Below, in pieces: positions 1 to 15,890 of a DNA stretch of 64,000 bases (position 1 is its first letter; each line of letters starts with the position of its first letter). The position numbers were made by a program, and so were the translations under genes. The notes under the pieces are model-generated. The model worked only from the letters and a program-made list of their open reading frames with translations, searched no databases and was not told the origin of the DNA. Source of the DNA: Terriglobia bacterium (lineage in GTDB: Bacteria; Acidobacteriota; Terriglobia; 20CM-2-55-15). Location of the stretch: the NCBI GenBank assembly GCA_965218585.1, contig CBDCLE010000002.1:96001-160000 (forward strand). Reading direction: 5' to 3'.

Positions 1-137
1 GCCCGCTAGGGCCTGTCGGACCTGCGGTTCCCCCCAGCCAGCGTCAAGCAGAACACTCCGGATTTCTTTTTCGTCCATAACCAGCCATATGAGTTACCCC
101 GTTGGTCGTGTAGGAATTATTCGCAAGAAAAGTCTCA

Positions 138-223
138 AATCCTCGCAAACGACATTGTCGGACTTTGAAAAAAGGCCTAAAAACGGGGGTTTTCAAGGTC
201 CGAGAACAGGATCTGATAGGGTC
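138..223. repeat. Inverted pair of 28-bp 11-6-11 palindromic sites (copy 1 at 138-165 reverse, copy 2 at 196-223 forward, 30-bp gap)
   Basis: Reverse complement of 138-165 is AAGTCCGACAA-TGTCGT-TTGCGAGGATT; 196-223 is AGGTCCGAGAA-CAGGAT-CTGATAGGGTC (degenerate). The pair at 5660-5745 has the same 30-bp spacing. Confidence 0.7.
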
Positions 224-329
224 GAGCACTGGTGAGGTGACCCGTAGGCAACTCCTTGGTTGTATCCGGCGCGTACTGACCCATCCACGAAAGCGGGGCG
301 ACTTCAATGATACTTTGGTGAGTGGGCTG

Positions 330-1694
330 GAGGTCGTTCCAATCGGTGTGTAAAAAGAGAAGGCGGTGTACGCTTTCAGTGAATTCGAAACCCTAAGCAA
401 TCCCGGCAGCAATCGGGAGAAAGGTACACCACCCATGAAGAAGAAGAACATACCGGCATCAGTGGCGTCAACGAACGCGTATGAAGGTTTGGAGGACTGG
501 GCGCGATCCCGGGTCCAAGTCTGGCTACAGGAGCTGCTCGAGGACGAAGTCACTCAATTTCTGGGTCGGGAAAAGTCGGAGCGGAGTCCGAATCGACGAG
601 GATACCGGAACGGTCACGGGAAACCGCGACGCTTCGCAATGGTGAACGGTACGATGGAGGTTCGACGACCTCGGGTTCGAAACACCGCCGAGCGGTTCGA
701 GAGTCAGATCCTGCCGTATTTTCGACGGAAATCGAAACAGCTGGGCGAGCTACTTCCCGATCTCTACCTCCACGGTCTGGCCACAGGGGACTTCGAGCAG
801 GCCATGCGCGGACTGCTTGGCGCTGGCGCTCCGTTGTCGCGAGCATCGATCCAACGACTGAAATCGACCTGGCAGTTGGAGTATGACGAGTGGGTCCAGC
901 AGGACCTGTCCGGCCTCGAGGTCGTGTACCAGTGGGCAGACGGCTTGTACGTGAAAGCGGGGATCGCGAAAGAGCGAGCGGCATTGCTGGTGATCATCGG
1001 AGCCTTGTCAGACGGGCGCAAAGTGCTGTTGGCCTGTGAGAGCGGGCAGCGGGAAAGCAAGGAGTCCTGGAGCCGCATTCTGCGCAATCTCCAGAGACGG
1101 GACCTGAAGCTGGGACGGCTGACTGTCGCGGACGGTCACCTGGGCATCTGGTCCGCGCTGGCCGAGCAACAGCCCCAGGGCCAGGAACAACGCTGCTGGA
1201 ACCACAAGTCGATCAACGTGGTCGATCATCTGCCGAAGACCGAGCAGCCCGCGGCCAGACAGCTGCTTCATGGGATGGCCTTCGCGAACTCCCGCGCGGC
1301 CTGCGAACGAAAGCGGGATCAGTTCGTCCGCCGATATGAGAAGAACTATCCCAAAGCGGGTGAGACGCTGTTGCGGGACTGGGACCGGATGATTACTTTC
1401 TATGAGTTCCCGAAACAACACTGGGTGCATCTGAGAACAACCAACATCGTCGAATCGCCCTTCGACATGGTTCGCCTCCGCACCAACGCCGCTCGCCGAT
1501 TCAAGCGTGTCGAGAATGCAACGGCAATGATCTGGAAGCTACTACGTGTCGCTGAGAAGGCTTGGCGACACTTAAAAGGATCCGAACTCTTACAAGAGGT
1601 CTATGATGGTCAGCAATTCGCTGACGGCATCAGAGTCGTGATGAAATCGAAGGCCGCCGCCTGATGACTTTTACACACCTTTTGTAATGACCTC
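330..1694 (+). mobile_element. IS256-family insertion sequence, copy 1 (1365 bp)
   Basis: Imperfect TIRs GAGGTCgTTcCAAtcGGTGTGTAAAA / TTTTACACACCttTTGtAAtGACCTC; 8-bp target duplication GTGGGCTG at 322-329 and 1695-1702. Confidence 0.95.
435..1664 (+). CDS. IS256 (Mutator) family transposase
   Basis: Motifs GYRNGH, WADGLYVK, VADGHLG, QRCWNHK, LRTTNIVES; lies between the TIRs. Confidence 0.95.
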   Translation: MKKKNIPASVASTNAYEGLEDWARSRVQVWLQELLEDEVTQFLGREKSERSPNRRGYRNGHGKPRRFAMVNGTMEVRRPRVRNTAERFESQILPYFRRKSKQLGELLPDLYLHGLATGDFEQAMRGLLGAGAPLSRASIQRLKSTWQLEYDEWVQQDLSGLEVVYQWADGLYVKAGIAKERAALLVIIGALSDGRKVLLACESGQRESKESWSRILRNLQRRDLKLGRLTVADGHLGIWSALAEQQPQGQEQRCWNHKSINVVDHLPKTEQPAARQLLHGMAFANSRAACERKRDQFVRRYEKNYPKAGETLLRDWDRMITFYEFPKQHWVHLRTTNIVESPFDMVRLRTNAARRFKRVENATAMIWKLLRVAEKAWRHLKGSELLQEVYDGQQFADGIRVVMKSKAAA

Positions 1695-1740
1695 GTGGGC
1701 TGTCCATTCGCCCCTAATTCAAAATCGAAACAGACTCAAA

Positions 1741-2403
1741 ATGATTAACCCGAATGAAGACCGCCCGACGGATTGGTTCGAAGAGTTGTACTCGGCGTCG
1801 GATGAACGTGGCGGCGGAATCCCGTGGGCCAACATGACAACCCACCCGGATTTTCGACACTGGTCGGAGCAAAACGAATTAAATGGCGCAGGTAAAACAG
1901 CACTCGTGATTGGCTGTGGCATGGGAGATGACGCCATGACACTGGCGTCCCTTGGTTTCAACGTCACCGCTTTTGACGTATCTCCCAGCGCCATTAACTA
2001 TTGCAAACAGCGCTTTTCCCAATCCAACGTCGATTTTGTAGTGGCTGATCTGTTTTCAGAGAACTTGCAATGGGATCGCCGATTTGATTTTGTGCTCGAG
2101 ATTTATACGATCCAGGCCTTGCCACCAAAGTATGAGGATGAAGTAATTGCCAAGATCGCCCGATATGTGGCCGTTGACGGTCAACTTCTAGTCATTGCCC
2201 TGGTGGATGAGACAGAGCGGTCTTTTCAGTCCGGCCCTCCTTGGCTGCTCACGCCAGGCCATCGAGAGTCCTTTGAAGCACATGGCCTGCGCATAGCGAA
2301 CCAATATGTAAGAAGAACCCCCGATGACGACGCCGCGACTTACGTCACAACGTTCATGAGGTTCGCATCTGGCCGACCTCGGCCGCGCCAGGTTGCTAAA
2401 TGA
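1741..2403 (+). CDS. Class I SAM-dependent methyltransferase (TPMT/TehB-like)
   Basis: WFEELY..IPW N-terminus, VIGCGMGDDA motif I, AFDVSPSAI, GPPW motif. Confidence 0.85.
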   Translation: MINPNEDRPTDWFEELYSASDERGGGIPWANMTTHPDFRHWSEQNELNGAGKTALVIGCGMGDDAMTLASLGFNVTAFDVSPSAINYCKQRFSQSNVDFVVADLFSENLQWDRRFDFVLEIYTIQALPPKYEDEVIAKIARYVAVDGQLLVIALVDETERSFQSGPPWLLTPGHRESFEAHGLRIANQYVRRTPDDDAATYVTTFMRFASGRPRPRQVAK

Positions 2404-2500
2404 ATCCAGGAATGAAACGAATACATTCGAGCGACGGCTTTACAAACGTGCTGAAGCATCGTCAGTCAAGACTCACCCGTTAGACAAGCGAGAAAACGTC

Positions 2501-3607
2501 ATGCTTACAGCCCGTGCCGACGTGGTCGGCTCCCTCCTTCGTCCTCCTGACCTCCTGGAAGCACGAAACGATTTCCTGTCGGGTGTCCTCTCTACCGAAG
2601 CATTCAAAGCCATCGAGGATAGCGCGGTTGATCGGGCCATCGCCCTGCAGGAGGAAGCTGGCCTGGAGGTAGTCACCGACGGGGAGCAGCGACGGCTCTC
2701 CTTCCAGAGCCAGATGACTGAAGCGGTGGAGGGTTTCGGAGAATGGGACTTGGACGCTTTTCTCTGGGGCGATTGGAAGGGGGACGTGCGGATCGGGAAC
2801 CAGCGGACTAAGCGGCCCCACTCGCTCGGCGTGGTCTCGAAGCTGAAAAGGAAGCGGTGGCTCTCCGTAGGAGAGTTCGTCTACCTCAAGGAGCGAACTA
2901 CGCGCATCCCAAAGGTCACTCTCCCGAGCCCAAGCCTCTTTTCTAACTTCTGGTCCAAGCAGAAGTCCTCGAACGCCTATGCCACGCTGGAGGCGTTCCT
3001 GGGGGACGTGACCGACATCCTCAAAGACGAAGTCGCCGAACTGGTGCGTTGCGGAGCGACCTACATCCAGCTTGACGCGCCGCACTATCCGCTTCTCCTC
3101 GATTCCAGGCTACGGCAGTTCTACGAATCACGTGGTTGGACGTCAGAGAAATGGCTGCAGGCGGGGATCGAGATGGACAACGCTGTGATTGGAAGCCACC
3201 CCGGTGTAACGTTTGGGTTCCACCTTTGCAGGGGCAACCAGGGCAGCCGGTGGCTCGTGGAAGGGGGCTACGATCTTATAGCTAAACAGATCTTCAAGAG
3301 GATCGGTGCCCAGCGCTTCCTGCTGGAATATGACGGTCCCCGCTCTGGATCCTTCGAACCGCTGAAGGAGGTGCCAGAAGACAAAACGGTGGTCCTCGGT
3401 CTCGTGACCACCAAGTCCCCACTCAGGGAAACCGTCAAAGATCTAACCGACCGTATCCGAGAAGCGTCACGCTTCGTCCCCAGAGAACGTCTCGCCATCA
3501 GTCCCCAATGCGGCTTCGGAACCTCGATCATCGGAAACGCCCTATCCTTTGAGGACCAAAAACGTAAACTCGAAACACTAACGGCGACTGCCCGTTTGTT
3601 CTGGTAG
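2501..3607 (+). CDS. Cobalamin-independent methionine synthase II family protein
   Basis: RADVVGSLLRP, TDGEQRR, HLCRGN, LEYD and SPQCGF Zn-ligand motifs. Confidence 0.9.
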   Translation: MLTARADVVGSLLRPPDLLEARNDFLSGVLSTEAFKAIEDSAVDRAIALQEEAGLEVVTDGEQRRLSFQSQMTEAVEGFGEWDLDAFLWGDWKGDVRIGNQRTKRPHSLGVVSKLKRKRWLSVGEFVYLKERTTRIPKVTLPSPSLFSNFWSKQKSSNAYATLEAFLGDVTDILKDEVAELVRCGATYIQLDAPHYPLLLDSRLRQFYESRGWTSEKWLQAGIEMDNAVIGSHPGVTFGFHLCRGNQGSRWLVEGGYDLIAKQIFKRIGAQRFLLEYDGPRSGSFEPLKEVPEDKTVVLGLVTTKSPLRETVKDLTDRIREASRFVPRERLAISPQCGFGTSIIGNALSFEDQKRKLETLTATARLFW

Positions 3608-3648
3608 CAGAGAACGGCGAAAAATCTGAATTCCAGAGAAAAGCCTCA

Positions 3649-3676
3649 ACGTCCGAGACGGGGATTTCCGAGGACC
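3649..3676 (+). repeat. 28-bp 11-6-11 site, copy 3
   Basis: ACGTCCGAGAC-GGGGAT-TTCCGAGGACC, flanked by CTCA / TGAG. Confidence 0.8.
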
Positions 3677-3761
3677 TGAGAATGGATTTCAGCGGCTGAA
3701 GGTGGAACAGCTCCGTTCCCCGGACCGCCGCCCTCACTTTAAAGGTTTGGCGTCGCGCGGA

Positions 3762-4523
3762 CTACTGACTACGGAGCAGTGGGACAAATCGGACCGGAGT
3801 GATGTCACGAATATCGACTCCACCTCCGGGCAATTTTTCAATCACCTTCAGGATCTGGATGGAGGCCGGTTCACCGACGGGAATGACCATCCGGGCTCCC
3901 GGCTTGAGCTGAGCAATCAGAGGTTGAGGAATCTCCTTGGCTCCGGCCGTGACGAGGATTCCATCGAAGGGACTGAACTCGGGCCATCCCAGGTACCCGT
4001 CACCTTCCCGTACCGAGACGTTCAAAATCCCGAGTCGTTCGAGTCGCTCTCCCGCGGAGCGGGCCAGCTCCGGAATGATCTCAATGCTATAGACTTCGGC
4101 CACCAGCTCGGCGGCGACGGCGGCCTGGTATCCCGATCCCGTTCCGACCTCGAGAAGACGGCCGTCCGGTTCCGTCTGAACGAGTTCAGTCATCAGAGCA
4201 ACAACGTAGGGCTGCGAGATAGTCTGATCCAATCCAATTGGTAGGGGCGCATCGTTGTAGGCCAAGGCTCTATAATCCGCGGGAACGAACTCGTGTCGGG
4301 GAACCCGTGCCATGGCTTCAAGAACCCGAGAGTCACGGATTCCTCGAGCTTCGATCTGCTGTTCGACCATCTGTTTGCGTGCCTGCCCAAAGTCTATGTT
4401 CTGGCGTGGTGACACCTGTGGTGAAATCGCTTCCACCGGGTCCGGACGGCAGGACACTACAACAGCAAACAAGAGCGCTAGAAACAAGGCCCGCGACCGT
4501 TGAGTGAGACAAGAAATATTCAT
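3762..4523 (-). CDS. pcm: Protein-L-isoaspartate O-methyltransferase
   Basis: VPRHEFVP, QTISQPYVVA, LEVGTGSGYQAA, VRFVPL; N-terminal extension resembles a lipoprotein signal (AVVVSC). Confidence 0.92.
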   Translation of the reverse strand: MNISCLTQRSRALFLALLFAVVVSCRPDPVEAISPQVSPRQNIDFGQARKQMVEQQIEARGIRDSRVLEAMARVPRHEFVPADYRALAYNDAPLPIGLDQTISQPYVVALMTELVQTEPDGRLLEVGTGSGYQAAVAAELVAEVYSIEIIPELARSAGERLERLGILNVSVREGDGYLGWPEFSPFDGILVTAGAKEIPQPLIAQLKPGARMVIPVGEPASIQILKVIEKLPGGGVDIRDITPVRFVPLLRSQ

Positions 4524-4558
4524 TTGCGCAATTCTAGTTTCCGTTGCTGAGATTCTCA

Positions 4559-4586
4559 AGGTCCGAGAAGGGGATTTCCGAGGACT
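4559..4586 (+). repeat. 28-bp 11-6-11 site, copy 4
   Basis: AGGTCCGAGAA-GGGGAT-TTCCGAGGACT. Confidence 0.8.
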
Positions 4587-4661
4587 TTTATCCGGAAGCT
4601 CCGGAGCCGAAGTTGAAGATGCTTATCCAAATTTCATTTCCAGCGTCGGGTACAGCGTAGT

Positions 4662-5465
4662 CTAGGGAGCGACGACCTCTGCGATCTCGAAGTGGATGCC
4701 TGCGGGCCCTTCGAAGAACATCAGGTCTGAGCCCGGCGGGTTGGGTCTAACCAGATAGGGCTCGTATCCGGAGGCTTCGAGAACTTCGCGGAACTCTTCC
4801 AGCGAGGGTACGCCAAAACCCATGTGATCGAGTGACCGGTAGCGGCTCGGCGCTGTATCACTCTCCGGAACCTGCGAAATCTGGACCCATAAGTCGCCGT
4901 ACAAGATGGTGTGAAACTGCCCCTTGCCGCGTGCCGGGATATCCTCGCCTCCGAACACTTCAAGGAACCACTCGTGAACGCCGTCCGCGTCGCTCGCCAT
5001 GAAATGGACGTGATTCACTCCCGTGTAGACAGGGTCCTCAAGTAGTTCGATTCGCGTTCCCCAGGGATCCTCGATAAACGCGATGGTTGATGCCGTGATA
5101 CCGACCCGCGGCTCGTCCCGGATCTGTGCGCCCATTTCCCTGGCGAGTGCCACGGTAGCGGCGACGTCTTCAACGGCTATGCCAAAGTGATCGATGACAC
5201 CGCCCTGGCTCGGTCGCGTCTCACCTTCGGTGGGCATTGTCATAACCATGCCGTTGCCGTAACGGACAGCCTGTCCAGGGCCACGCGCGACTACCTCGCC
5301 GCCGAGCAGCGCCTGATGCCACACCGCCGCTTCGGTTGTGTCCGGTACACGCATGTGTACGTGCGTAAAAACGCTCTGCGCGAGGACGGAACCAGGGAGC
5401 AGGAACACGCCCAGCGTCAAGCGAATGAGCTGGATTCGAAGCCGTGGATAATTCGTGTGAGACAT
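4662..5465 (-). CDS. Secreted VOC/glyoxalase family protein (two VOC domains)
   Basis: Signal peptide; HVHM..DHFG..DPWGTRIELLE repeated as HVHF..DHMG..GPAGIHFEIAE. Confidence 0.85.
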   Translation of the reverse strand: MSHTNYPRLRIQLIRLTLGVFLLPGSVLAQSVFTHVHMRVPDTTEAAVWHQALLGGEVVARGPGQAVRYGNGMVMTMPTEGETRPSQGGVIDHFGIAVEDVAATVALAREMGAQIRDEPRVGITASTIAFIEDPWGTRIELLEDPVYTGVNHVHFMASDADGVHEWFLEVFGGEDIPARGKGQFHTILYGDLWVQISQVPESDTAPSRYRSLDHMGFGVPSLEEFREVLEASGYEPYLVRPNPPGSDLMFFEGPAGIHFEIAEVVAP

Positions 5466-5619
5466 GGTGATCTCCTCGTATTCAGGTCGGTGTCGGTATC
5501 GCGAAACACCTCTCCCCTACCACCTCACCGATCTGGCTCGGATCTCGTAGGGACCGAGTCTTGTGCCCGATCGCATGGACTAAGTGTCCAGTTGAGCGGT
5601 CTACTGAAAAACTCGTTAA

Positions 5620-5648
5620 ACGATACTCGAGGTGGGTGTTAGACACAA
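5620..5648 (-). promoter_or_regulatory. Repeat-associated sigma70-type promoter (TTGTGT-N17-TATCGT)
   Basis: Homologous to the promoters at 6432, 9117, 12612 and 15645; points toward the VOC gene. Confidence 0.55.
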
Positions 5649-5659
5649 TCAGAAGGTCA

Positions 5660-5745
5660 GGTCCTCCAGAACGACTTTCCCGGACATTCAGAAAAGACCT
5701 CAAAAATGAGCGTTTCAACGTCCGAGAAGATGATTTATCAGAACT
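5660..5745. repeat. Inverted pair of 28-bp sites (copy 5 at 5660-5687 reverse, copy 6 at 5718-5745 forward, 30-bp gap)
   Basis: Reverse complement of copy 5 is ATGTCCGGGAA-AGTCGT-TCTGGAGGACC; copy 6 is ACGTCCGAGAA-GATGAT-TTATCAGAACT. Confidence 0.8.
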
Positions 5746-5760
5746 TGACCTCAAGTATCG

Positions 5761-5784
5761 GGGCACCGGCACCCGGTCTTTCAG
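5761..5784 (-). pseudogene. Very short Ser/Thr kinase C-terminal remnant (LKDRVPVP)
   Basis: Matches the tails at 7782, 9226, 12726 and 13309, in the same position relative to the 28-bp site. Confidence 0.55.
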
Positions 5785-5819
5785 CGACGTCTCCGCGAAT
5801 CTGTTCGGTACGCCAGTTT

Positions 5820-6329: not shown

Positions 6330-6431
6330 CGTCAATTGTCCTCCATATCTATTTACATCGATACACCAACCGGGGTGCCGGACGGGACCCTCCAAGCTGT
6401 GTGCCGGATTCCATTTTGAAAAGCTGGTTAA

Positions 6432-6460
6432 AGGATACGAAAGGCAGAAATTATGTGCAA
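6432..6460 (-). promoter_or_regulatory. Repeat-associated sigma70-type promoter (TTGCAC-N17-TATCCT)
   Basis: Upstream of the peroxiredoxin gene and next to site copy 7. Confidence 0.6.
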
Positions 6461-6485
6461 TGAATCTGTCACAGCGAAATTCTCA

Positions 6486-6513
6486 GCGTCCGAGAAGATG
6501 ATTTCCCAGGACC
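6486..6513 (+). repeat. 28-bp 11-6-11 site, copy 7
   Basis: GCGTCCGAGAA-GATGAT-TTCCCAGGACC within TCTCA...TGAGA. Confidence 0.85.
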
Positions 6514-6736
6514 TGAGACTCACTTTTCACGATCATCTCGGGCACCTCCTGTTTCTCTTGTACATGCCAGAGCTTTCCGCCAATAATAGGCATAATAGCG
6601 GCCGCGTCAGCAGGAGAGTCAAGCGCACGGCCGCGAGAGTTTTTCCGCACGTTCTTTCCGCGGAGCCACAGGGCTCCAAATATCCTGAACCGGCTCCGTT
6701 ATGGGACTGCTCGATCGAGGAGAAAGGAAGGTGCAA

Positions 6737-7689: not shown

Positions 7690-7741
7690 AAGACACGATA
7701 GGCTGACCCCCAAAGTGTCGCCCGGAAAAGGAAACTTCTCA

Positions 7742-7769
7742 ACGTCCGAGAAGATGATTTCTCAGGACT
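7742..7769 (+). repeat. 28-bp 11-6-11 site, copy 8
   Basis: ACGTCCGAGAA-GATGAT-TTCTCAGGACT. Confidence 0.85.
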
Positions 7770-7781
7770 TGACCTCGAAAA

Positions 7782-7915
7782 TCAAGGAACCGGCACCCGT
7801 TCCTTCAGTTCTTCAAACCAGTCTAGGACGATCTTGACTTGGGATCGTTGCATCTCACCGTCGTTCTGGAAAGTACGTTTCAGCGCCGGGAATCGTCCAT
7901 CGGGGACACGTCATA
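7782..7915 (-). pseudogene. C-terminal remnant of an acidobacterial Ser/Thr kinase with TolB-like propeller
   Basis: YDVSP(frameshift)DGRF...QVKIVLDWFEELKERVPVP-stop. Confidence 0.75.
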
Positions 7916-7963: not shown

Positions 7964-8881
7964 TCAAGGCTCTGGACTGCTATCTACTACCTCGCGCGTG
8001 GCGTCGCGCCAAGCACCATCGCCCACGACCTTTCCGGGCAACTCCTCTCTCTCGACGCTGACCACAACCTCTGACCCCAGTTGCAGGCTCTCTACACTGT
8101 CTTTCCCCCGCGGCAAAAAGCGGGCGGCGACTTCTCCAAGAGGTGGCCCGTAGAAGTGAATGTCGATGGCATCCTGACCCGAGGTGTTCGAGACGGCATG
8201 AATGGTGTTCGGGCCATCCAACTCCATCAGCATACTCGGATGAATGACGTCTCGCTGGGTCAGTCGGAGCCGGTTCTCGCTCAGTCGATCGAAGTGCGTA
8301 ATCTCGAGCTGTCCCTCGACGGTCTTGCCCAACCCGACGCAATTGTGGGAGTGGATATGAGCGCGGGTACCCGCGGTCCACTGAATTCCGACCAACGAAC
8401 CGTTTCCTTTCTTGCTCTCCCAGTAGATGGCGCGTCGGTAGTTGATCGGAGGAAGAATCGCGCTCTTTCGTATTGGTTCGAGCTCTCCGATGACCGGGTA
8501 GACCTGCTTCAAGATCCTTTTCGCGACTGTTGGAGTGAGATCCTCTTCCAAGTCGTAGTACTCGAATAGGTCAACCGCCTCGCGTAACGACAGTGGCGCT
8601 CTCGAAGCGAGGCGATGCCTTAGCTGTGTCGTTTCCGGTAGGATGAGCCGTCCCAATCGGTAGAGACCAAAGGAAATAACGAGTGCGATGCCCCCGGAAG
8701 TGAGCACGAGCCACGGAGAGTTTCTGGCGAAAAACAGCAGCATGACGAGCGATACCCCGGCCATGCCGATCGAGCCGCAGGCACCCGCGACTACGGCCTT
8801 CCAACCAATCTCAACGATCGTGGCCAGGTTGATCCGGAGACCTATTCCCGCACACACGCAGACGATCAGAAACGATACCAC
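7964..8881 (-). pseudogene. 5'-truncated fusion: YeiH/putative sulfate exporter C-terminus plus cysteine dioxygenase-like cupin
   Basis: AGIGLRINLATIVEIGWKAVVAG resembles the YeiH C-terminal helices; WTAGTRAHIHSH..IHAVSN..IHFYGPP is a CDO-type cupin; the N-terminal transporter part is missing. Confidence 0.6.
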
Positions 8882-9145: not shown

Positions 9146-9175
9146 TCAGAAGGTCAACATCCGTATTAATTCTCA

Positions 9176-9203
9176 ACGTCCGACAAGATGATTTAACAGG
9201 CGT
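9176..9203 (+). repeat. 28-bp 11-6-11 site, copy 9
   Basis: ACGTCCGACAA-GATGAT-TTAACAGGCGT; outer arms extend to ATTCTCAACG / CGTTGAGAAT. Confidence 0.85.
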
Positions 9204-9225
9204 TGAGAATCATTTTCATGGTCGA

Positions 9226-9288: not shown

Positions 9289-9291
9289 ATC

Positions 9292-10155
9292 CTACCGGCC
9301 TTCGGCCTCCTGAAGCATCGCGTCGAATCGGGTCTCGACGCCCTCCACGTAACCCCTCCACCCTTCCGCGTCAAAGCAGGTCACACACCCCGAATCGACA
9401 GGAAGAGCCGGGTCCAACTCGCGGGGCGGATTCTGCGGGTGGTTGTGGAGAAAGAGGTCGGGAGGTTCGAGATCCCTCAGCCGTAGAAGCGTCCTCTGCG
9501 TATCGGCCACAACCGTCGGGTGCCTGGGATTGTTGAAGAGCTGAACGCCAGCGTTCGGAATTTCGCCGCCACGGAAAGCGACGGAGTAGGCATTCCCACC
9601 CTGCTGGGCAGTTGTCATCCACATCGTTGCTCCTTGCGTGTGGCCACCTGTCCAGAGGGCGCGTAACGTTACCCCGCCCAACGCGACGGTGTCACCGTCC
9701 TCGATCACGCGATCCACCGTGACAGGCTCCCAGCCTCGGGCTCCGAGAGCCGAGTTGTCCTGGCCTGACTGGAGCGCCACCGCGTCGCCGCCGAGCGCGA
9801 CAACTTGCGCGCCGGTCACCCGCTTCATTGCCGCATGTCCCTCAACGTGGTCCCAATGCGCATGGCTCGAGATCATGATCCGAATGTCCCGGACGTTGAA
9901 CCCAAGTTTCTCGACGTTCGACACGATGAGCGCATGCATATCGGCGCTGCCCGTGTCGTGGAGAATGTGACCCTCTGGCGTGGTTATGAGATAGGAGCCA
10001 TATTGGCCGCCGACATAGTAGATATTGCCTATGACGCGGAACGGTTCCACGCCTTGGCTCTCCGCTTGACTCCGCTCGCCTCGCTCCGCTGCACCATACG
10101 GGGACACCGATAGCATCGCAGCACTCAGCAATACCAACGCACATATCAGACGCAT
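9292..10155 (-). CDS. Subclass B3 metallo-beta-lactamase-fold protein, secreted
   Basis: Signal peptide, EPFRVIGNIYYVG, SYLITTPEGHIL, SHAHWDH, GGHTQG, HNHP. Confidence 0.88.
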   Translation of the reverse strand: MRLICALVLLSAAMLSVSPYGAAERGERSQAESQGVEPFRVIGNIYYVGGQYGSYLITTPEGHILHDTGSADMHALIVSNVEKLGFNVRDIRIMISSHAHWDHVEGHAAMKRVTGAQVVALGGDAVALQSGQDNSALGARGWEPVTVDRVIEDGDTVALGGVTLRALWTGGHTQGATMWMTTAQQGGNAYSVAFRGGEIPNAGVQLFNNPRHPTVVADTQRTLLRLRDLEPPDLFLHNHPQNPPRELDPALPVDSGCVTCFDAEGWRGYVEGVETRFDAMLQEAEGR

Positions 10156-10468
10156 AACGGCCTCCTTAACAATAGTGCGTGTCGCAAGTCCGCTTCCGGA
10201 CGGTATGGAATGGAATTTCGATTCTTGGATGAGCTGGATCACGTTCTTGGTCCGGAGTTCGTTAGAATGCAGGAGAGCCTTGCCGAGATCCAGGCACTCA
10301 GTCGAATCTTGCAGGACTGAAAGTCCTCAACTCCTCCAAATTGTCTCGTTCCGATCGTCACTCTGGTCTGCCGTCATGCCGCGCAACTGCGATGATTCGT
10401 GATATCCGGGCGAAGTTCCGAGATGAACGGCAGTGCTCACGAACTCACTGAAGCCTGACTGTGGGTCA

Positions 10469-11104
10469 TCAGCGAAGCTCTGTGCCTCCCCTTCGGTCGT
10501 CAGTAACAAACTTGTCCCTGGCGGGCATCTCGACCCGTGGGAGCGTGTCGGCGTTCATCACCGCGTCCTCGCTGATAATGTCATTCAGATAGAGAAGATA
10601 AGCGGTCAGGCTGTAGACCTCGTTCGGTTCGAGTGTGCCTGGCGCGTCGAACGGCATCGCGCGGAAGGTGTAGTCGTACAGGGTAGTAGCAAACGGCCAG
10701 TAGTTACCGATCGTTCTTGCGAGCGAGGGCTCGTTGCCGAACGGAAATCCTTCACGTGGCTCTCGTCCGACGAGCTGATCGAACGGCTGGCCCTCGCCGT
10801 TCGGGCCGTGGCACATCCCACACTTTTCGATGTACAGCTGTTGACCCTGCTCGGCGGTGCCGCTGCCAGCCGGCAGGCCCCGGCCGTCTGGTGTGACGTC
10901 GATATCCCAGGCCGCGATCTCAGCTTCCGTGGCAGGGCGGCCGAAACCGAACCGCTGCGGCTGCTGTTCGGTGCCCTGCTGGGCCTGCATGTAGATCGGA
11001 ACTGCCAACAGCACGACACCCAATGCCCTCACCACGCTTACGCCGAAACCGACGCGTACAAGTCGATACCTTGACATCAATCCGTTACTCCATCCGGGTC
11101 GCAA
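10469..11104 (-). CDS. soxD: Monoheme cytochrome c, SoxD-like
   Basis: FGRPATEAEIAAWDIDVTPDGRGLPAGSG, CGMCHG, YWPFATTLYDY..AMP; directly downstream of soxC. Confidence 0.85.
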   Translation of the reverse strand: MRPGWSNGLMSRYRLVRVGFGVSVVRALGVVLLAVPIYMQAQQGTEQQPQRFGFGRPATEAEIAAWDIDVTPDGRGLPAGSGTAEQGQQLYIEKCGMCHGPNGEGQPFDQLVGREPREGFPFGNEPSLARTIGNYWPFATTLYDYTFRAMPFDAPGTLEPNEVYSLTAYLLYLNDIISEDAVMNADTLPRVEMPARDKFVTDDRRGGTELR

Positions 11105-11170
11105 TCTGCGGTGGTGAGGAAGCTCATTCAGTTTTCAGTTCTCAAGTGGCTGTGGCCCCGAGCTCCGCTC

Positions 11171-12436
11171 CTACCCATCCACCGCAAACACCGTCGACCC
11201 ATCCTGGCGCACACGGCACCCACGGATGTGGTTGTAGTGATAGCTCGTGCCGATACCGCGCACGGCAATCAGCTCGTCGAGCGTCGGCTGCACGTAGCCC
11301 GTCTCGTCAGTCGCGCGGCTCAGGATGACGGTTTCCTCTCCCTGCCAGTTGAACACCGCGCGAAACCGCGTGTGGCAGATCGGCAGCACCGGATCCTGTA
11401 GCTGGGCGTCCTGCCACGTACGGCCACCGTCGGTCGTGATCTCGACCCGCACGATCCTGCCGCGGCCGCTCCACGCCAGCCCGGAGATCTCCCACCACCC
11501 GCGCTCGGATAACGTATCGGGGTAGGCTGGGAATGTGATGATCGACTTTGCGTCCATCGTGAAGCTGAATTGACGCGCCGTGCCGTCCGGCAGCGGGTCG
11601 GTGTACTTGGACGTTTCCTCGCGCGTCATGAAGGCCTCGTCGCCGACTTCGATGCGACGGATCCACTTGATGCTGGAGTTGCCTTCCCAGCCCGGCAGGA
11701 ACAGGCGCACCGGATATCCCTGCTCCGGCCGCAGCGCCTCACCGTTCTGCCCATACGCAATCAGCGCGTCATCCATCACCTTGGACATCGGGATACTGCG
11801 CGTCATGACCGCTGCGTCGGCACCTTCCGCCAGGATCCACGTGGCTTCAGCAGGCACCCCAACCTCCTGCATGAGCGTCGCCAACGGCACGCCTATCCAT
11901 TCGCTGGTGCTCGTCAGGCCGTCGACCGCCTGGGGCGTGCGTTCCTCGGTCGCGCGGTCGCGATAGGAGCCGCCGCCGTTGCCGGAGCATTCCATGAAGT
12001 GGATGACCGAGCGTGAGGGGAACCGCCTCAGATCGGCCACCGTGAACATCGTCGGCCGATCGACCATACCGTGGATGAGCAACGTGTGTCTTTCCGGGTC
12101 GATGTCCGGGATGCCACCGTGATGCCGCTCGAAGTGCAGGTCGGACGGCGTGATGATGCCGTCGAGATCCTGGTGCGGCGTACGGGAGCTGGTCGGCCGC
12201 TCGCTGGAGTACAGCCGCCTAGGCTGCTCGAATGCTGACCTCGTGCCCAGCTCACTGGCGCCTCGCCCTTGGACCTTAGTTGGATCGTCGGGCACCGTCG
12301 GCTGCTCTTGCTGCCGGGCATGCGCCTTGCCGAACGGCATGGCAGCCGTACCCAGGACGCTAGCCGTGCCTACCAGCATGGCGCGGCGACTGATCGGTTG
12401 CCGGGGGGAGCTGCTCCGGGTGATCTGCTTAGCCAC
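11171..12436 (-). CDS. soxC: Sulfite dehydrogenase molybdopterin subunit SoxC, Tat-exported
   Basis: SRRAML Tat motif, ITPSDLHFERHH, ECSGN, QNGEALRPEQGYPVRL, SIKW; GTG start with GAGGAG RBS. Confidence 0.92.
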   Translation of the reverse strand: MAKQITRSSSPRQPISRRAMLVGTASVLGTAAMPFGKAHARQQEQPTVPDDPTKVQGRGASELGTRSAFEQPRRLYSSERPTSSRTPHQDLDGIITPSDLHFERHHGGIPDIDPERHTLLIHGMVDRPTMFTVADLRRFPSRSVIHFMECSGNGGGSYRDRATEERTPQAVDGLTSTSEWIGVPLATLMQEVGVPAEATWILAEGADAAVMTRSIPMSKVMDDALIAYGQNGEALRPEQGYPVRLFLPGWEGNSSIKWIRRIEVGDEAFMTREETSKYTDPLPDGTARQFSFTMDAKSIITFPAYPDTLSERGWWEISGLAWSGRGRIVRVEITTDGGRTWQDAQLQDPVLPICHTRFRAVFNWQGEETVILSRATDETGYVQPTLDELIAVRGIGTSYHYNHIRGCRVRQDGSTVFAVDG

Positions 12437-12611
12437 TGATGTCTCCTCAAGATTTACATTGGGTGATTCGCGTAGGATACCGGGAATATACCATGGAGCG
12501 CATGTGAGTGGCGAACCACCAGTGCTACTATCTGCTGGGTTCACTTCATGCTCACTCGGGCTCGGAGACACGGGTGGGACTGACAGGCAAGAAGACCTAA
12601 AAACTCGCTAA

Positions 12612-12640
12612 AGAATACTAAGGGAGGGGTTTGTAAGCAA
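12612..12640 (-). promoter_or_regulatory. Repeat-associated sigma70-type promoter (TTGCTT-N17-TATTCT) upstream of soxC
   Basis: Identical to 9117-9145. Confidence 0.7.
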
Positions 12641-12676
12641 TCAGAAGGTCAACGCTTGTATTTAGGCCAATTCTCA

Positions 12677-12704
12677 ACGTCCGACAAGATGATTTATCAG
12701 GCGT
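12677..12704 (+). repeat. 28-bp 11-6-11 site, copy 10
   Basis: ACGTCCGACAA-GATGAT-TTATCAGGCGT; the block at about 12604-12765 closely matches about 9109-9266. Confidence 0.85.
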
Positions 12705-12725
12705 TGAGAATCATTTCATGGTCGT

Positions 12726-12779
12726 TTAGGGAACCGGGACCCGCTCCCTCAGTTCTCCAAACCAGTTGAGAACAACGTA
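12726..12779 (-). pseudogene. Ser/Thr kinase C-terminal remnant (YVVLNWFGELRERVPVP-stop)
   Basis: Direct translation. Confidence 0.75.
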
Positions 12780-12843
12780 GGTCGAACGGCAACTCCCATC
12801 GCTCGTACGAAACACGTAAACGCTATTAGGCGGCAGGGAATGA

Positions 12844-13239
12844 CTATGTGGCAACCGGTTGCCACGTCACAAGCGCCACCTGCCACTCGCCGCCCGTCCT
12901 CCGTAGGATCCATAGATGCGTTCCCGCCGTAACCCTCACCTCGGAGCTTCCTGCAGCGGCATAGCGCGTGCTGTAAGTACTAGTCTTGTACGCGAACGAA
13001 TCGCTCCCACGAATCTGGATGTCGGCCGTCTGGATTTCTCGAATCTCGACACCCGGCTCTGCCAACAACTCTCTAGCCGCTACCTTGCCAACAAGTAGCT
13101 CCGAGTTAGGAACAAGCCACTGCACGTCGTCGGTGCATAGTTGCAGCACCCCCAGAACATCTCCGTCCAACTCCCTGGCGATCCACCGATCGTGAAGGTT
13201 TCTAATTTCCTGAAGATCTCGGTGGGATAGGTCGGACAT
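12844..13239 (-). CDS. NTF2/SnoaL-like (DUF4440/YybH) protein
   Basis: Small alpha/beta pattern: LCTDDV, VGK, C-terminal ILRRTGGEWQV. Confidence 0.8.
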   Translation of the reverse strand: MSDLSHRDLQEIRNLHDRWIARELDGDVLGVLQLCTDDVQWLVPNSELLVGKVAARELLAEPGVEIREIQTADIQIRGSDSFAYKTSTYSTRYAAAGSSEVRVTAGTHLWILRRTGGEWQVALVTWQPVAT

Positions 13240-13308
13240 GGCCTCACCCGTGACACATCCTACCGTTACGTGCAACACAAGCTGTCACGAACTGAACCTT
13301 TCGATGTT

Positions 13309-13347
13309 TCACTGCACCGGAACCCGTTCCTTCAGTTCTTCAAACCA
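13309..13347 (-). pseudogene. Ser/Thr kinase C-terminal remnant (WFEELKERVPVQ-stop)
   Basis: Direct translation (end of ORF 13309-13548). Confidence 0.7.
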
Positions 13348-13599
13348 GGGTCGAAAGTCGTTCCGAACCAGACTGGACTCCAGGCTGGTAAGTTCATGAC
13401 TTTCATAGCATTTCGCGGAGCTAAGCGAAGCGTGCAAAAAGTGGATGCCTGAACTCACTCCACCGGCACGCGCTCGCGCAGCTCTTGGAACCAGTTCTGG
13501 GCGATGTTGATTCGAGGTGTGGAGCAGCGGCACGGACTGCTCCGGCAACGTCGTTCCTCCAACTACAGAGGAACGATCTATCGCCCCGTTTTTCCGGCT

Positions 13600-13989
13600 T
13601 TACTGCCCGGGATTACGAATGTTGAAGACGCGGCCGTCCTCGGTGGTCACCTGATAAATGAGGACGCCTCTCATGCCGTTCGCATGCGGGGGATTACCCG
13701 AAACGGTAATTCGAGTGCCGGGCGCGATCGTGTCGTTGCCGGCGTAACCGGCTTCTCTCATGCCCTGTAGCGAAGCCGAGGTTCCTACCCACCGCTCGCC
13801 GTTTTCGTCGGTCCATGCGAGCTGCGAATGTGGGTTCATTATCCTAGCTCCCACCAGGGTTCCGGCTACCTCTATCTGAGCCTCGGTATTCCAAAACGTC
13901 GTAACCGAGTGGTGTGCGACGGCAGAGACACTCAGCGAAACAAGGATCCCCACCGCCCACAATGCTGAAACCCAAGTACGAATTCTCAT
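13600..13989 (-). CDS. DUF6152-like secreted protein
   Basis: Signal peptide then AHHS, NPHS, PG..ITVSGNP, DGR tail. Confidence 0.8.
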   Translation of the reverse strand: MRIRTWVSALWAVGILVSLSVSAVAHHSVTTFWNTEAQIEVAGTLVGARIMNPHSQLAWTDENGERWVGTSASLQGMREAGYAGNDTIAPGTRITVSGNPPHANGMRGVLIYQVTTEDGRVFNIRNPGQ

Positions 13990-14054
13990 GACCATTACTC
14001 CTAATGTTCTCATCAAGGTTGGTCTAGGACTCTTGAGCCCTCACCACATTCTCA

Positions 14055-14873
14055 CTACCGATTGATGGAAATGTCGGCACCATATGGATCCGGAACCGTC
14101 CCTTCCACTTCGAACAGGTTATATTCCGGATCGCAGTTATACACGCCCATCGGCACATGTTCAGCATCCCGCGTCATCATGTGGCTCCACGTAAAAGGCC
14201 TCAACAGCATGAGAGGATCCTCGAGCGTGATGGTCACTCTCATTGTGTCCTCGTCCAGCAACATATAACGCTCAGTGACCTTTTTCATGTCCGAACTGGG
14301 AATATGGAGATGGTCGTCGATTCCATCCACGTCGAATGTGAAATTCGTCGTCTCGATAACGAATTCGTTGTCTCCCTCGAAGCGACCTCTCGAATACCCC
14401 GTAAACCAGGAATCCCTGGGGTGTGGGGCATCTCGCCCGTCCATCCAGACGTGGCGGGTGTGCCAGTAGTAACTCTGTATGATCTGCAGTTCGACCTCGG
14501 ACACGAATCTCCACGTGTGGATCATCCCATCCAACGCGGCGGGTACCGTCGGCGGTTTGCAGTGCCATTTCGGTGAGAGGTATTCATCGCGGCGAAAGAT
14601 CTCCGTTAAGGCCAATGCCCGAGGGCTCAAGTAAGGTTCTAGGTCATTGTACGGAATCGAACACCGGATCACGGGGTTGCCCACTGTATTCGTAAGATGC
14701 CCACAGGCTTCAGACTGATTGAAATCGTTACCCATGATATTCCACGACCCGTGGAAGGCCGGCGGCCACGAATTTGCCTGGGCCTTGAGGTCCTCGGTGC
14801 CCACCAGCGTGACGGCGGTTAGCAAGGCAAGTGTTGCCAACAAACTCCACGCTTTTTGTGTCCATGAATGCAT
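14055..14873 (-). CDS. Secreted hypothetical protein associated with DUF6152
   Basis: Signal peptide; CxPxxxP, RHVWMDGR, GYSRGRFEGD, IETTNF, TERY, LEDP, YNC. Confidence 0.8.
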   Translation of the reverse strand: MHSWTQKAWSLLATLALLTAVTLVGTEDLKAQANSWPPAFHGSWNIMGNDFNQSEACGHLTNTVGNPVIRCSIPYNDLEPYLSPRALALTEIFRRDEYLSPKWHCKPPTVPAALDGMIHTWRFVSEVELQIIQSYYWHTRHVWMDGRDAPHPRDSWFTGYSRGRFEGDNEFVIETTNFTFDVDGIDDHLHIPSSDMKKVTERYMLLDEDTMRVTITLEDPLMLLRPFTWSHMMTRDAEHVPMGVYNCDPEYNLFEVEGTVPDPYGADISINR

Positions 14874-14964
14874 GGTTGCTGCTCCTTGTACTTGTTGCGG
14901 GTTCAGAGTTTGTATATCACCACAATGTCAAATATCCAGCATGAAATTGTGGGCCCGCGGCCTC

Positions 14965-15363
14965 CTACGGTGCCGGCTCCGGATCCGGCCCTCCGCCGTA
15001 TCTCCTCCCGTCGGGAAGAGTGATTGAGGACAACTGGCCCGCGAGGGCTTCCGTAACGGAAGGAAAAGCGACAACGGTCACTTCTTGACCGACCGGCAAG
15101 GTCACTGGGGTAAAACCCGTAAAGATGAAGCCGCGAATGGAACCGCCTTCGAGAGCCCAATTGAGCACTTCGCCCCCTTCGTCCTTCACGTCGATATAGA
15201 GTGACGCATGGGGACTCCGTAGGACGAACTCCGTGACGGTGCCGCGCAATGTGACCGGATTCCTCCTGTCAACCGATAGTGGTGTCGAGTGATGCCCGTC
15301 GAGCGATCCAGAGAAGATAGACAGGACGGCAAACAAGCCGAAAACCGTGGCCAACCTTTTCAA
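14965..15363 (-). CDS. DUF6152-like secreted protein
   Basis: GHHS, GTVTEF, SPHA, WALEG, LPDGR. Confidence 0.82.
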   Translation of the reverse strand: MKRLATVFGLFAVLSIFSGSLDGHHSTPLSVDRRNPVTLRGTVTEFVLRSPHASLYIDVKDEGGEVLNWALEGGSIRGFIFTGFTPVTLPVGQEVTVVAFPSVTEALAGQLSSITLPDGRRYGGGPDPEPAP

Positions 15364-15422
15364 CAGGTAGTCTCCAATTACCGCAGATTCCTCTCCGGTT
15401 TTCTCGTGAGTCTGTCTGTAGG

Positions 15423-15593
15423 ACGTTCAAATCGGGCAAGCCGATCAGCATCCTCGGCAAACTCCTCAGGCGTTGTCTTAATAGCCACCTCACGCCCGAG
15501 CTTCGTGTCCCGAGCACGCCACACCTCACCCATTCCACCCTTCCCTAAGAGCGTTGAGATCTCGTAGTGGCCGAGTTTGGTGCCGGATTCCAT
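15423..15593 (-). pseudogene. Ser/Thr protein kinase N-terminal fragment (Gly-rich loop and VAIK only)
   Basis: [47 protein letters not shown], after which homology stops. Confidence 0.9.
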
Positions 15594-15644
15594 GTCTTTA
15601 GAGTGTTGTGCGGTCACAGACCGCACCTACAGAAATTCCGGCTA

Positions 15645-15674
15645 AATATAACTACAGGTGGGAGTTATTCGCAA
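15645..15674 (-). promoter_or_regulatory. Repeat-associated sigma70-type promoter (TTGCGA-N18-TATATT) upstream of the kinase fragment
   Basis: Same position relative to the reverse 28-bp site as at 5620-5687. Confidence 0.55.
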
Positions 15675-15685
15675 GAAAAGTCTCA

Positions 15686-15713
15686 AGTCCTCGCAAACGA
15701 TCTTCTCGGACGT
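15686..15713 (-). repeat. 28-bp 11-6-11 site, copy 11 (reverse), right boundary of the array
   Basis: Reverse complement is ACGTCCGAGAA-GATCGT-TTGCGAGGACT; 15661-15717 closely matches about 113-169. Confidence 0.85.
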
Positions 15714-15890
15714 TGAACTTTGCTTGGATCCGACCAGAGTCCTTCAGGTCAATGTTTTCCTGGAGTTGAGGTACCCGGGGGTTCCTAGAATCGGTCAACT
15801 ATATATTCCCCCTCGAACACACGTTCCTGACCATCAGCGCAGGAAGTGAGGAGTTCACATGAGGTTCGGAGAGGGATCGGCCGCGGGGAT

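Follow-up and report, generated by a model that had tools for sequence, protein, structure and literature searches.

Modules delimited by repeated sites

The window analyzed here is a 64,000-nucleotide stretch of the genome of a Terriglobia bacterium (G000), an acidobacterium from soil, and its left end (132-15719) carries short repeated sites that delimit cassette-like modules of unrelated, partly truncated cargo genes, as first read from the sequence (Table 1). All eleven positions listed in the original prediction carry the motif, and all are intergenic, in agreement with the claim that they lie at gene boundaries. Seven of the eleven match the 28-mer with at most 3 mismatches (0 in 100 shuffles), and the other four (138 reverse, 196, 3649, and 5660 reverse) were found in repeat families D1 and D6 and in the register-aligned listing. 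A 40-nt weight matrix was built from the 11 window sites, which match it by construction; a scan of the remaining 48 kb of the window yielded zero additional copies, as the original prediction had stated. Synteny with congeners begins about 170 bp to the right of the last site.

Table 1. Features of the array at window positions 132-15719
Feature	Position	Strand	Remarks
B-class site	132..171	-	Heads neighboring unit on the left; dyad with site at 190
A-class site	190..229	+	Right arm degenerate, 33.8 bits (site 196 of the original prediction)
IS256-family insertion sequence	330..1694	+	Inverted repeats 330-355/1669-1694; transposase 366-1664; 67 genome copies
Cargo, SAM methyltransferase (TehB/TPMT-like)	1687-2403	+	
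Cargo, MetE-like Meth_synt_2 protein	2393-3607	+	
A-class site	3643..3682	+	
Cargo, protein-L-isoaspartate O-methyltransferase (PCMT)	3762..4559	-	
A-class site	4553..4592	+	Spacer variant GGGGAT
Cargo, glyoxalase-family protein	4662..5465	-	
Kinase gene start remnant	5545..5589	-	Repeat family D5
B-class site	5654..5693	-	Degenerate, 36 bits; heads unit 190-5693
A-class site	5712..5751	+	Dyad; 18 nt from B site 5654..5693
A-class site	6480..6519	+	
A-class site	7736..7775	+	Exact consensus
Kinase gene end remnant	7781..7837	-	Ends in DWFEELKERVPVP and stop; repeat family D3
Cargo, cysteine-dioxygenase-like cupin	7964..8881	-	
A-class site	9170..9209	+	Right-arm variant GGCGTTGAGAA
Cargo, metallo-beta-lactamase (MBL)-fold protein	9292-10242	-	
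Cargo, cytochrome c	10469-11104	-	
Cargo, molybdopterin oxidoreductase	11171-12571	-	
A-class site	12671..12710	+	Right-arm variant GGCGTTGAGAA
Three kinase-end remnants	12725-12781, 13308-13364, 13454-13510	-	Repeat family D3
DUF4440 gene	12844-13278	-	Among kinase-end remnants
Cargo, DUF6152	13600-14016	-	
Cargo, 272-aa protein without assigned function	14055-14873	-	
Cargo, DUF6152	14965-15363	-	
Truncated Ser/Thr kinase start	15378..15626	-	82-aa ORF, ~55 aa of kinase
Promoter-like TTGCGA-18-TATATT	15645..15674	-	Just downstream of B site; conserved after B sites
B-class site	15680..15719	-	Heads unit 5712-15719

A genus-wide family with two classes of site

Conservation extends over about 40 nt, exceeding the 28-34 bp initially assigned to an otherwise real motif, and the unit has the near-palindromic consensus TTCTCAA-C-GTCC-GAGAA/GATGAT/TTCTC-A-GGAC-TTGAGAA. 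Its core comprises two inverted 11-bp arms flanking an asymmetric 6-bp spacer, which fits the 11-6-11 architecture described from the sequence alone. The spacer is the best-conserved part (pairwise identity 0.93-0.98), and one arm, constant, forms with it a stretch of about 25 nt that hardly varies over 95 distinct A sites, drawn from three species. Relative to each other, the arms are shifted by a single base, which is unusual for a single protein binding both and counts against recognition by a recombinase. Class A sites have the spacer GATGAT. Class B sites, whose spacer ends in TCGT, are followed by a promoter and stand at array heads; the three reverse copies, previously taken for the same site, bear the motif but belong to this distinct class. 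Adjacent A sites are in direct repeat (33/33 pairs), and adjacent A and B sites are inverted (23/24).

Scanned with the weight matrix at a threshold of 30 bits or more, G000 contains 83 copies in 26 clusters on 18 of its 26 contigs, and two sister species contain more than 100 each. The motif is not confined to the array: it occurs throughout one genus of Terriglobia (55-144 copies per genome), with zero or one copy in the scanned genomes of other genera. Such a spread is, in part, what the original prediction had named as evidence against itself. Most copies (74/83) have a neighbor within 12 kb, versus 35% expected, and the clumps fall in accessory regions rather than across core intergenic regions.

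Association with a kinase gene family

Originally, the sites stood on either side of the genes of a Ser/Thr kinase family, with B upstream of the promoter and A right after the stop codon; the original interpretation holds only in part. Of the 18 kinase N-termini that were found, 7 have a B site at a fixed 77-88 nt upstream of the start and a promoter-like element in between, and by a strict test an A site lies just past a stop codon or kinase stump in 15/62 cases, compared with 5/2000 random places. In many arrays, kinase stumps are retained around unrelated cargo genes.

The position of B sites ahead of kinase starts would also suit an operator pair, at which a dimer of dimers of a transcription factor controls the adjacent promoters in a regulon of accessory genes. 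Each 17-nt half of the site (TTCTC-N7-GAGAA) is itself a small palindrome, the two halves being 23 bp apart center to center; sequence is conserved with no compensatory change; and at 4559-4531 the constant arm provides a TTGAGA -35 element, followed 17 nt further on by TAGAAT. Nonetheless, we regard this explanation as quite improbable. Only 2/62 A sites have a promoter arranged to read outward from the constant arm, most A sites follow stop codons or kinase stumps, 83 copies nearly identical over 25-40 nt do not resemble the degenerate operators of a regulon, and the junctions at sites would be left unexplained.

Alternatively, non-autonomous cargo elements could have the sites as their terminal inverted repeats, each element being a B...A unit moved by a transposase encoded elsewhere, with arrays arising as tandem or nested insertions. 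Each unit has B and A in inverted orientation, with the constant arms at its two outer ends, abutting units are joined by a fixed 18-nt linker (six inverted A/B dyads in all), and many copies have homologous right flanks, with unrelated DNA past the constant arm. We consider this improbable, given that no target-site duplications were seen at unit ends (by eye, few units), that polymorphisms in the constant arm track the outside flank rather than the unit interior, that direct internal A sites form the majority (33 A-A neighbors versus 17 B...A pairs), and that no matching transposase was found.

Shared cargo and junctions at sites

Cargo is 87-97% identical between species, compared with 71-82% for core genes and flanks of the same species. 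In comparisons of 106 non-redundant A sites, 374 pairs have a common right flank only, 15 pairs a common left flank only, and 4 pairs have both in common. Right-arm identity is raised in right-sharing pairs only (0.92 versus 0.80) and outer-left identity in left-sharing pairs only (0.99 versus 0.87), such that left and right half-sites each segregate with their own flank. Ordinary homologous recombination, acting in the 25 nt of identical core, would mimic this linkage, which hence is no proof of site-specific exchange.

Some cassettes reappear, site to site, in other arrays and species. For example, a DUF3024 cassette of C4 in G000 shares 92.6% identity with its copy in the congener G001, where its neighbors differ, and a 349-bp cassette is present in three G001 arrays. 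At C12 of G000, a two-site cassette stands between core genes whose spacing in four congeners is 0.5-1.2 kb; its counterpart in G003, where the second site ends within the spacer, shows 97% identity. In the window, the PCMT block, taken together with the constant arm of site 4553, shows 92% identity to its counterparts in G001 and G003, and the cupin block is conserved in G003 together with the kinase-start remnant at 9043-9087 and site 9170. The PCMT and DUF3024 blocks reach into the constant arm, with divergence setting in at the spacer or right arm, and meet a site at one end only. Several other recent blocks end away from sites, including a 423-aa amidohydrolase block (97% identical between C4 and C9) and the glyoxalase and MBL-fold gene blocks, the glyoxalase block being gene-sized and 88-90% identical in three congeners. 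The recurrence of cassettes supports the original interpretation for some modules, and the block ends away from sites count against it.

The array arrangement was identical in three runs from three studies (contigs only), and these contigs supported no spacer joint and showed no circle, inversion, or strain polymorphism, which counts against exchange at the spacer. An IS30-family element inserts exactly at the site center, and this element or its MITE at the center, rather than recombination with secondary sites, accounts for most half-sites in G000.

Extragenic palindromes as the main rival explanation

REP sequences are known hot spots for IS insertion (PMC1525189). The sites resemble REP/BIME and REPIN-RAYT systems in being imperfect palindromes of 35-40 nt outside genes, lineage-specific, transcription-oriented, arranged in inverted dyads, and hot spots for ISs. 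The main rival explanation is that they are such palindromes with a structural or transcript-level role (insulation, termination, or mRNA stabilization), spread with the kinase genes or via a putative transposase. Their 25-40 nt of identity would make them passive hot spots for homologous recombination, deletions, and IS insertion, and so produce mosaic arrays. The copy number and restriction to a single genus are consistent with this, as are the six dyads, the targeting by the IS30-family element, the proximity of IS256 copies (13/67 near sites versus ~4 expected), and the many block ends off sites. Orientation also follows transcription: the gene to the left is directed away from the site in 48/62 cases, and the gene to the right ends at it in 44/62. 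Two window copies have T-rich tails and score as terminator-like.

Other observations make this explanation doubtful, if still a serious one. The copies are far fewer than those of REPs, clump in accessory regions, and delimit gene-sized modules. Compensatory change is absent among the 95 distinct sites (pair 15-26 is paired in 32/95) and the loop is most conserved, which favors recognition of sequence over a mere hairpin. B sites, being upstream of promoters, fall outside the transcript of the gene they precede, and an Rfam search gave no family at E up to 1. Neither of the two Y1-transposase (RAYT-like) genes in G000 has the sites in its flanks, and a RAYT-linked REP identity was rejected.

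Recombinases and known recombination systems

The window holds an IS256-family transposase and no match in a tyrosine recombinase search, in keeping with the original prediction. The tyrosine recombinases of G000 consist of Xer-like genes and four others only, and none adjoins an array. No recombinase gene was found beside the arrays read, which counts against a recombinase, and no cognate enzyme was found for the predicted role of a tyrosine recombinase encoded elsewhere. Nor are the sites the chromosome-dimer (dif) site of the genome: the dif candidate lies elsewhere, and its arms match those of the sites at 7/11 and 5-6/11 positions (manual count).

One study of the Xer-dependent pdif modules in Acinetobacter plasmids describes crossover within the site, a need for matching spacers, retention of the host dif XerD arm, alternation of modules in C/D orientation, and variable spacers (PMC13141974). 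IS1202-family elements target pdif (PMC10132070). The pdif modules and the sites described here both have a 28-bp-type core of two 11-bp arms and a 6-bp spacer, bound accessory modules without a recombinase gene, and serve as IS targets. The sites described here differ in that the one constant arm is unlike the XerD-side arm of the host dif candidate (5-6/11, manual count), neighbors are direct, the spacer is invariant, and about 80-140 sites per genome are chromosomal and linked to the flanks of kinase genes.

In integron attC sites, which usually measure 57-141 nt, it is the structure that is conserved and not the sequence, and the folded single strand recombines at the outer R box. We consider it highly improbable that the arrays are integrase-less CALINs, remnants of a chromosomal integron dispersed by rearrangement, even though co-oriented imperfect palindromes lie between mostly single, diverse, co-oriented genes 0.35-3.5 kb apart, the outer boxes of the right-arm variants at 9170 and 12671 resemble R''/R', and three of four congeners encode a full integron integrase. 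IntI is absent from G000 (best score 83.7 bits versus a cut-off of 265), and no site occurs within 20 kb on either side of intI in G001, G002, and G003 (six 20-kb loci). The DNA beside the G001 intI instead carries classical attC-like sites of 70-100 nt that differ in sequence. Moreover, the 40-nt sites conserve sequence and not pairing, their junctions map to the center rather than the outer box, and the promoter-bearing inverted B class has no integron counterpart.

Proposed mechanism

Neisserial dRS3/RS mosaic elements and minimal mobile elements are likewise short repeats that bound variable segments, permit genes to be swapped by recombination within conserved surroundings, and are targets for the integration of mobile elements. 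Their segments between repeats are non-coding and 50-150 bp long, whereas those between the sites here are whole genes. The inverted arms and short asymmetric, directional spacer resemble those of lox and FRT, with the A and B classes resembling heterospecific spacers, although the resemblance is one of architecture only, a search found no cognate recombinase, and the arms are offset by one base.

As the best reading of these data, we tentatively favor lox/dif-style recombination sites of a putative enzyme. We infer that a site-specific recombinase acting in trans would recognize the sites and exchange DNA within the 6-bp spacer. Because A sites are in direct repeat, a segment between two of them could be excised as a circle and enter a different A site. 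The inverted, promoter-bearing B site heads each array, and its different spacer would prevent recombination with A sites. Arrays such as 132-15719 are read as strings of B/A units that carry cargo in place of the kinase, and the site, which in some 80 copies marks the borders of exchangeable gene modules, may serve for recombination.

A conserved 40-nt repeat occurs in clusters at gene boundaries

All eleven sites that the original prediction had placed in the gene array (window positions 132-15719) are present; seven match the proposed 28-mer at ≤3 mismatches (against 0 in 100 shuffles), and the remaining four were recovered via repeat families and a register-aligned listing. The 11-6-11 core held, with two 11-bp arms, inner AA/TT and a 6-bp spacer evident in the alignment and the per-column profile of 95 distinct class A sites (spacer GATGAT), but the conserved unit spans about 40 nt (TTCTCAA-C-GTCC-GAGAA / GATGAT / TTCTC-A-GGAC-TTGAGAA) rather than the 28-34 bp claimed. 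Its left arm is near-invariant (hereafter the constant arm) and its right arm is variable. In line with the original prediction, a 40-nt matrix derived from the eleven sites detected no extra copy in the other 48 kb of the window. Across the 4.55-Mb assembly of the genome under study (G000), the same matrix matched 95 places at ≥18 bits, with a bimodal score distribution (83 sites at ≥30 bits and just 21 further sites down to 15 bits).

The original prediction had named a genome-wide spread of the motif, upstream of ordinary genes, as evidence against a gene-capture system. The 83 copies lie on 18 contigs and are clumped into 26 clusters, and they are extragenic: only 5/62 A sites and 0/21 sites of the second class (B, spacer ending TCGT) fall inside a long naive ORF. 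REP/BIME elements, too, are short, imperfect palindromes that lie outside genes and are present in many copies (83 here), and REP-like repeats serving as a passive hot spot would account for much of the same data. Nonetheless, REP/BIME elements are spread through the intergenic regions of whole chromosomes, whereas 74/83 sites here have a neighbor within 12 kb, versus 35% expected. We regard this explanation as possible, if on the doubtful side. Its RAYT-associated form was rejected, as neither Y1 transposase gene (PF01797, C10:115768 and C3:160482) has a flanking site at ≥8 bits (the nearest is 2.2 kb away).

The sites conserve sequence rather than pairing. Among the 95 distinct sites, the spacer is the best-kept part, the pair 15-26 is formed in 32/95 and the pair 14-27 in 65/95, and compensatory pairing at 15-26 was not significant (Fisher P = 0.06 and 0.51). 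As a single strand, the 40-nt site would fold with a one-base bulge on either side, and the folding energies are modest (z from -1.5 to -4.3 in 7/8 folds; z = +0.3 for site 3643). An Rfam search of window 1-17000 at E up to 1 returned nothing relevant.

Copies of a 22-mer from the site (≤2 mismatches) numbered 55 in G000, 144 and 101 in two congeners and 8 and 1 in two further congeners. Single copies were found in each of three genomes from two other genera of the family, with none elsewhere among 41 genomes; reversed patterns gave 0 matches. Scans of sequence collections with a 21-mer matched one genome contig and two short metagenome contigs, too few to be informative.

Two site classes delimit ordered units linked to kinase genes

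Adjacent A-A pairs are direct in 33/33 cases, and the 24 adjacent A-B pairs comprise 17 convergent pairs, 6 divergent dyads (18-nt linker in at least 5/6; one with a 108-nt linker) and 1 direct pair. These orientations yield a unit order of B, genes and then at least one reverse-complemented A site. Two complete units lie in the window (190-5693 and 5712-15719), preceded by the terminal part of another (B at 132). The right arm of B sites is often TTGCGAGGAC. Directly outside the constant arm, the left flank of four B sites also carries a conserved stretch of ~60 nt (..GGCTATATCTCCCATTGTTTCAATGG..).

Downstream of B sites comes a conserved stretch with promoter-like hexamers and then the beginning of a Ser/Thr kinase gene, and reverse-complemented A sites occur ~16 nt past the kinase stop (..NWFEELKERVPVP up to the stop). 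Of 18 kinase N-termini found, nine have a site upstream (seven B at 77-88 nt and two A at 102 nt); of the six short fragments, five have one. In a strict test, remnants of a kinase tail were adjacent to 15/62 A sites versus 5/2000 random places. Kinase genes also flank the single sites of the other genera. Within the window the kinase bodies are gone, leaving stumps of 11-55 codons (start) and ~15 codons (end) around unrelated cargo. A fixed promoter position, as for an operator, applies to the seven B sites before kinase starts and to 2/62 A sites; with only these two, the constant arm was rejected as a general outward promoter.

Coordinates and contents of features associated with the sites (C, contig; L, fetched locus; G001, a congener)
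Feature	Location	Remarks
Window cargo		TehB-like methyltransferase, MetE-like protein, protein-L-isoaspartate O-methyltransferase (PCMT), glyoxalase, cysteine-dioxygenase-like cupin, metallo-beta-lactamase (MBL)-fold protein, cytochrome c, molybdopterin oxidoreductase, DUF4440, two DUF6152
Promoter-like TTGCGA-18-TATATT	window 15674-15645	after B site
B sites with ~60-nt left-flank stretch	G000 C9:66554, C9:142264, C2:547320, C4:202325	
Intact site-flanked kinase (example)	G000 C2:547320-553005	domains Pkinase + PD40
dif candidate	G000 C10:37495-37522	single-copy, classical Xer core
Xer-like genes	G000 C10:73428-74207, C3:185307-185993	
Classical integron	L025:15300-20000 + L026:1-550 (G001:C9:710300-715549)	intI over TIGR02249 cut-off, small cassettes
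IS30-family copies	G000 C3:347541-348770, C2:58387-59615, C13:7114-8342	
MITE-like IS30 derivative, ~75 nt	G000 C14:31853-31965	also at site centre
IS91-family element	L034:2880-5360 (G001:C1)	further copies L035-L039

The sites differ from dif modules and from integron attC sites

In build, the sites come closest to dif modules, in which, according to PMC13141974, the bounding sites are inversely oriented and alternate along the array; here, by contrast, all 33 adjacent A-A pairs are direct. The genome has a separate, single-copy dif candidate, which is kept at ≤3 mismatches in 6/25 related genomes searched (three genera). By our own count, an A site equals this candidate at 7/11 left-arm and 5-6/11 right-arm positions. 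With the XerD-side arm not close, the sites were rejected as the genome's dif, and given this unlike arm and the lack of alternating orientation, they do not belong to the Xer/dif family by these tests. One congener (G003) carries the dif candidate twice, at a distance of 11 kb, and the pair could be the signature of an integrated Xer-dependent element.

Integron attC sites are about 57-141 nt long and keep their structure while their sequence varies, whereas the sites here are 40 nt long with a conserved loop. Together with the lack of compensatory pairing and of an IntI in G000, this led us to reject an attC identity. In a profile search, the integron integrase (TIGR02249) was below the cut-off in G000 and above it in three of four congeners, where 0 sites lie within 20 kb either side of intI. 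The intI of G001 is followed by classical 70-100-nt attC-like sites; the same integrase is found in G002 and G003, and G004 has fragments only. A scan of window 1-17000 for R''/R' boxes (RYYYAAC / GTTRRRY) picked only the right-arm-variant sites 9171 and 12672, most sites reading CTTGA or CCTGA where an R' box would read GTTGA. No canonical attC was identified in the window by this crude scan, which found only 1 of the ~4 attC-like sites noticed by eye in the control.

Evidence for and against the sites as joints between modules

We compared the flanks of 106 non-redundant A sites from G000 and fetched loci of G001 and G003. Of the site pairs with a common flank, 374 have it on the right alone, 15 on the left alone and 4 on both sides; the right arms are more alike only in right-sharing pairs, and the outer-left positions only in left-sharing pairs. 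This co-variation of arms with flanks indicates that the halves have separate histories and meet near the spacer. Three junctions fall at the spacer or right arm, although homologous exchange in the identical core would give the same picture, and ordinary homologous recombination within these 25 nt would be expected to leave the same linkage of flank and arm.

Some cassettes recur from site to site. Copies of a DUF3024 cassette in G000 and G001 are 92.6% identical and have different neighbors, and a 349-bp cassette is present in three G001 arrays. A two-site cassette on G000 C12 is flanked by core genes that in four congeners are separated by a gap of 0.5-1.2 kb with no site in it. A 97% identical copy occurs in G003, where the second site ends within the spacer; overall, the ends of the C12 insertion are not at sites, and ~0.5 kb was lost. 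In three genomes, the PCMT block (window 3754-4585) includes part of site 4553, reaching into its constant arm. That the PCMT and DUF3024 blocks have a site at one end only counts against the sites as joints. Ends away from sites were found for a 423-aa amidohydrolase block (97% identical in two G000 arrays) and for the glyoxalase and MBL-fold blocks. The singleton sites C24:47637 and C19:83348 are surrounded by multicopy elements and provided no usable empty site.

The cargo of other arrays includes amidohydrolases, an esterase, an ankyrin protein and the DUF3024 gene. Gene-sized cargo blocks are 87-93% identical to their congener copies, whereas the core flanks show 74-77% identity at two loci and 71-82% at another, indicating recent movement of cargo between species. 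Two overlapping ORFs at window 6701-7689 (+) (186 and 250 aa, no Pfam match) resemble one frame-shifted gene and, by eye, an apparent relative of the 272-aa protein (14055-14873) encoded between the two DUF6152 genes.

In four congeners, the region starting at window 15890 is adjoined by the ortholog of G000 C24:362721-375646, and no sites occur within 20 kb. Synteny breaks at window 15890-16190, next to helicase/RNase H-like genes (16151-19905). Given this orthology, the window array lies at a rearrangement breakpoint. Among assembled contigs from four sequencing runs, the array arrangement is retained with 0-1 differences in three, each from a different study and one possibly being the source sample; the joints listed in the runs lie within repeat modules, with short sides (21-40 nt) and 90% likeness, and were not counted.

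Insertion sequences are associated with the sites

A 1.23-kb IS30-family element (HTH_38 + rve) is inserted exactly in the site centre, within the central spacer, in three G000 copies, the C3 copy having a frame-shifted transposase. This element is a target-specific IS. Of the half-sites (16 left-only and 9 right-only), most are explained by this element and its short derivative. In G001, a 2.5-kb IS91-family element encoding a 293-aa tyrosine recombinase and a Y2 transposase has at least six near-identical copies, inserted at ..CCGGTT| and located 21-30 nt beside sites in at least 5/6 cases; G002 shows ~25 matches to a related 311-aa recombinase. An IS91-type element was rejected as the mobilizer, as G000 is without it except for a 121-nt remnant. 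IS256-family elements in G000 (67 copies ≥600 nt, including window 330-1694) are roughly threefold enriched within 1 kb of sites (13/67 versus ~4 expected).

REPs are known IS targets, as described in PMC1525189, and the same is reported of pdif sites in PMC10132070; hence, IS targeting does not separate repeats acting as a passive hot spot from recombination sites. Typical transposon ends were rejected: inspection by eye of a few unit ends revealed no target duplications, and constant-arm variants track the outside flank. Transposon ends, an operator or attC share whatever probability those two readings leave. IS21-like istA/istB genes, together with a split phage-type integrase (132 + 233 aa), are located upstream of the array region at C2:77198-81321, 15-19 kb to the left of the window, and may represent the edge of a genomic island.

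Proposed mechanism and implications for gene gain

Sequence-specific protein recognition, with exchange at or near the spacer, is pointed to by the invariant asymmetric spacer and two oppositely oriented spacer classes, by the strictly direct A sites, and by half-sites that track their own flanks together with cassettes that recur from site to site. These features are near those of the gene-capture system originally proposed, although by our tests it belongs to neither the Xer/dif nor the integron family. That the repeats are recombination sites is, in our view, plausible but short of probable, and that they constitute an integron-free chromosomal gene-cassette system in Acidobacteriota is a tentative and rather unlikely proposition. 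In such a system, direct, lox/dif-like A sites would allow single genes to exit and enter arrays by exchange in the invariant 6-bp spacer, and the inverted B sites, with their promoter and heterospecific spacer, would form fixed heads of the arrays and drive expression of the captured genes. The putative enzyme would be a trans-acting recombinase of the host, for which Xer and four other tyrosine recombinases are possible candidates. Such a system might have originated from the sequences flanking a family of kinase genes and may now move cargo between species.

Acidobacteriota are abundant in soil, and to our knowledge little is known of how they gain genes. Here, a 40-bp site is found where gene modules meet in at least three species, and the identity of the shared cargo is far above that of the core genomes. 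The cargo consists mostly of enzymes (methyltransferases, glyoxalase, amidohydrolases, esterase and redox proteins). If no recombinase is involved, the sites would represent a clear REP-like family that structures accessory regions and attracts IS30-, IS91- and IS256-type elements. If a recombinase does act on them, they would constitute a second, integron-independent route to cassette arrays and a new orthogonal recombination site.
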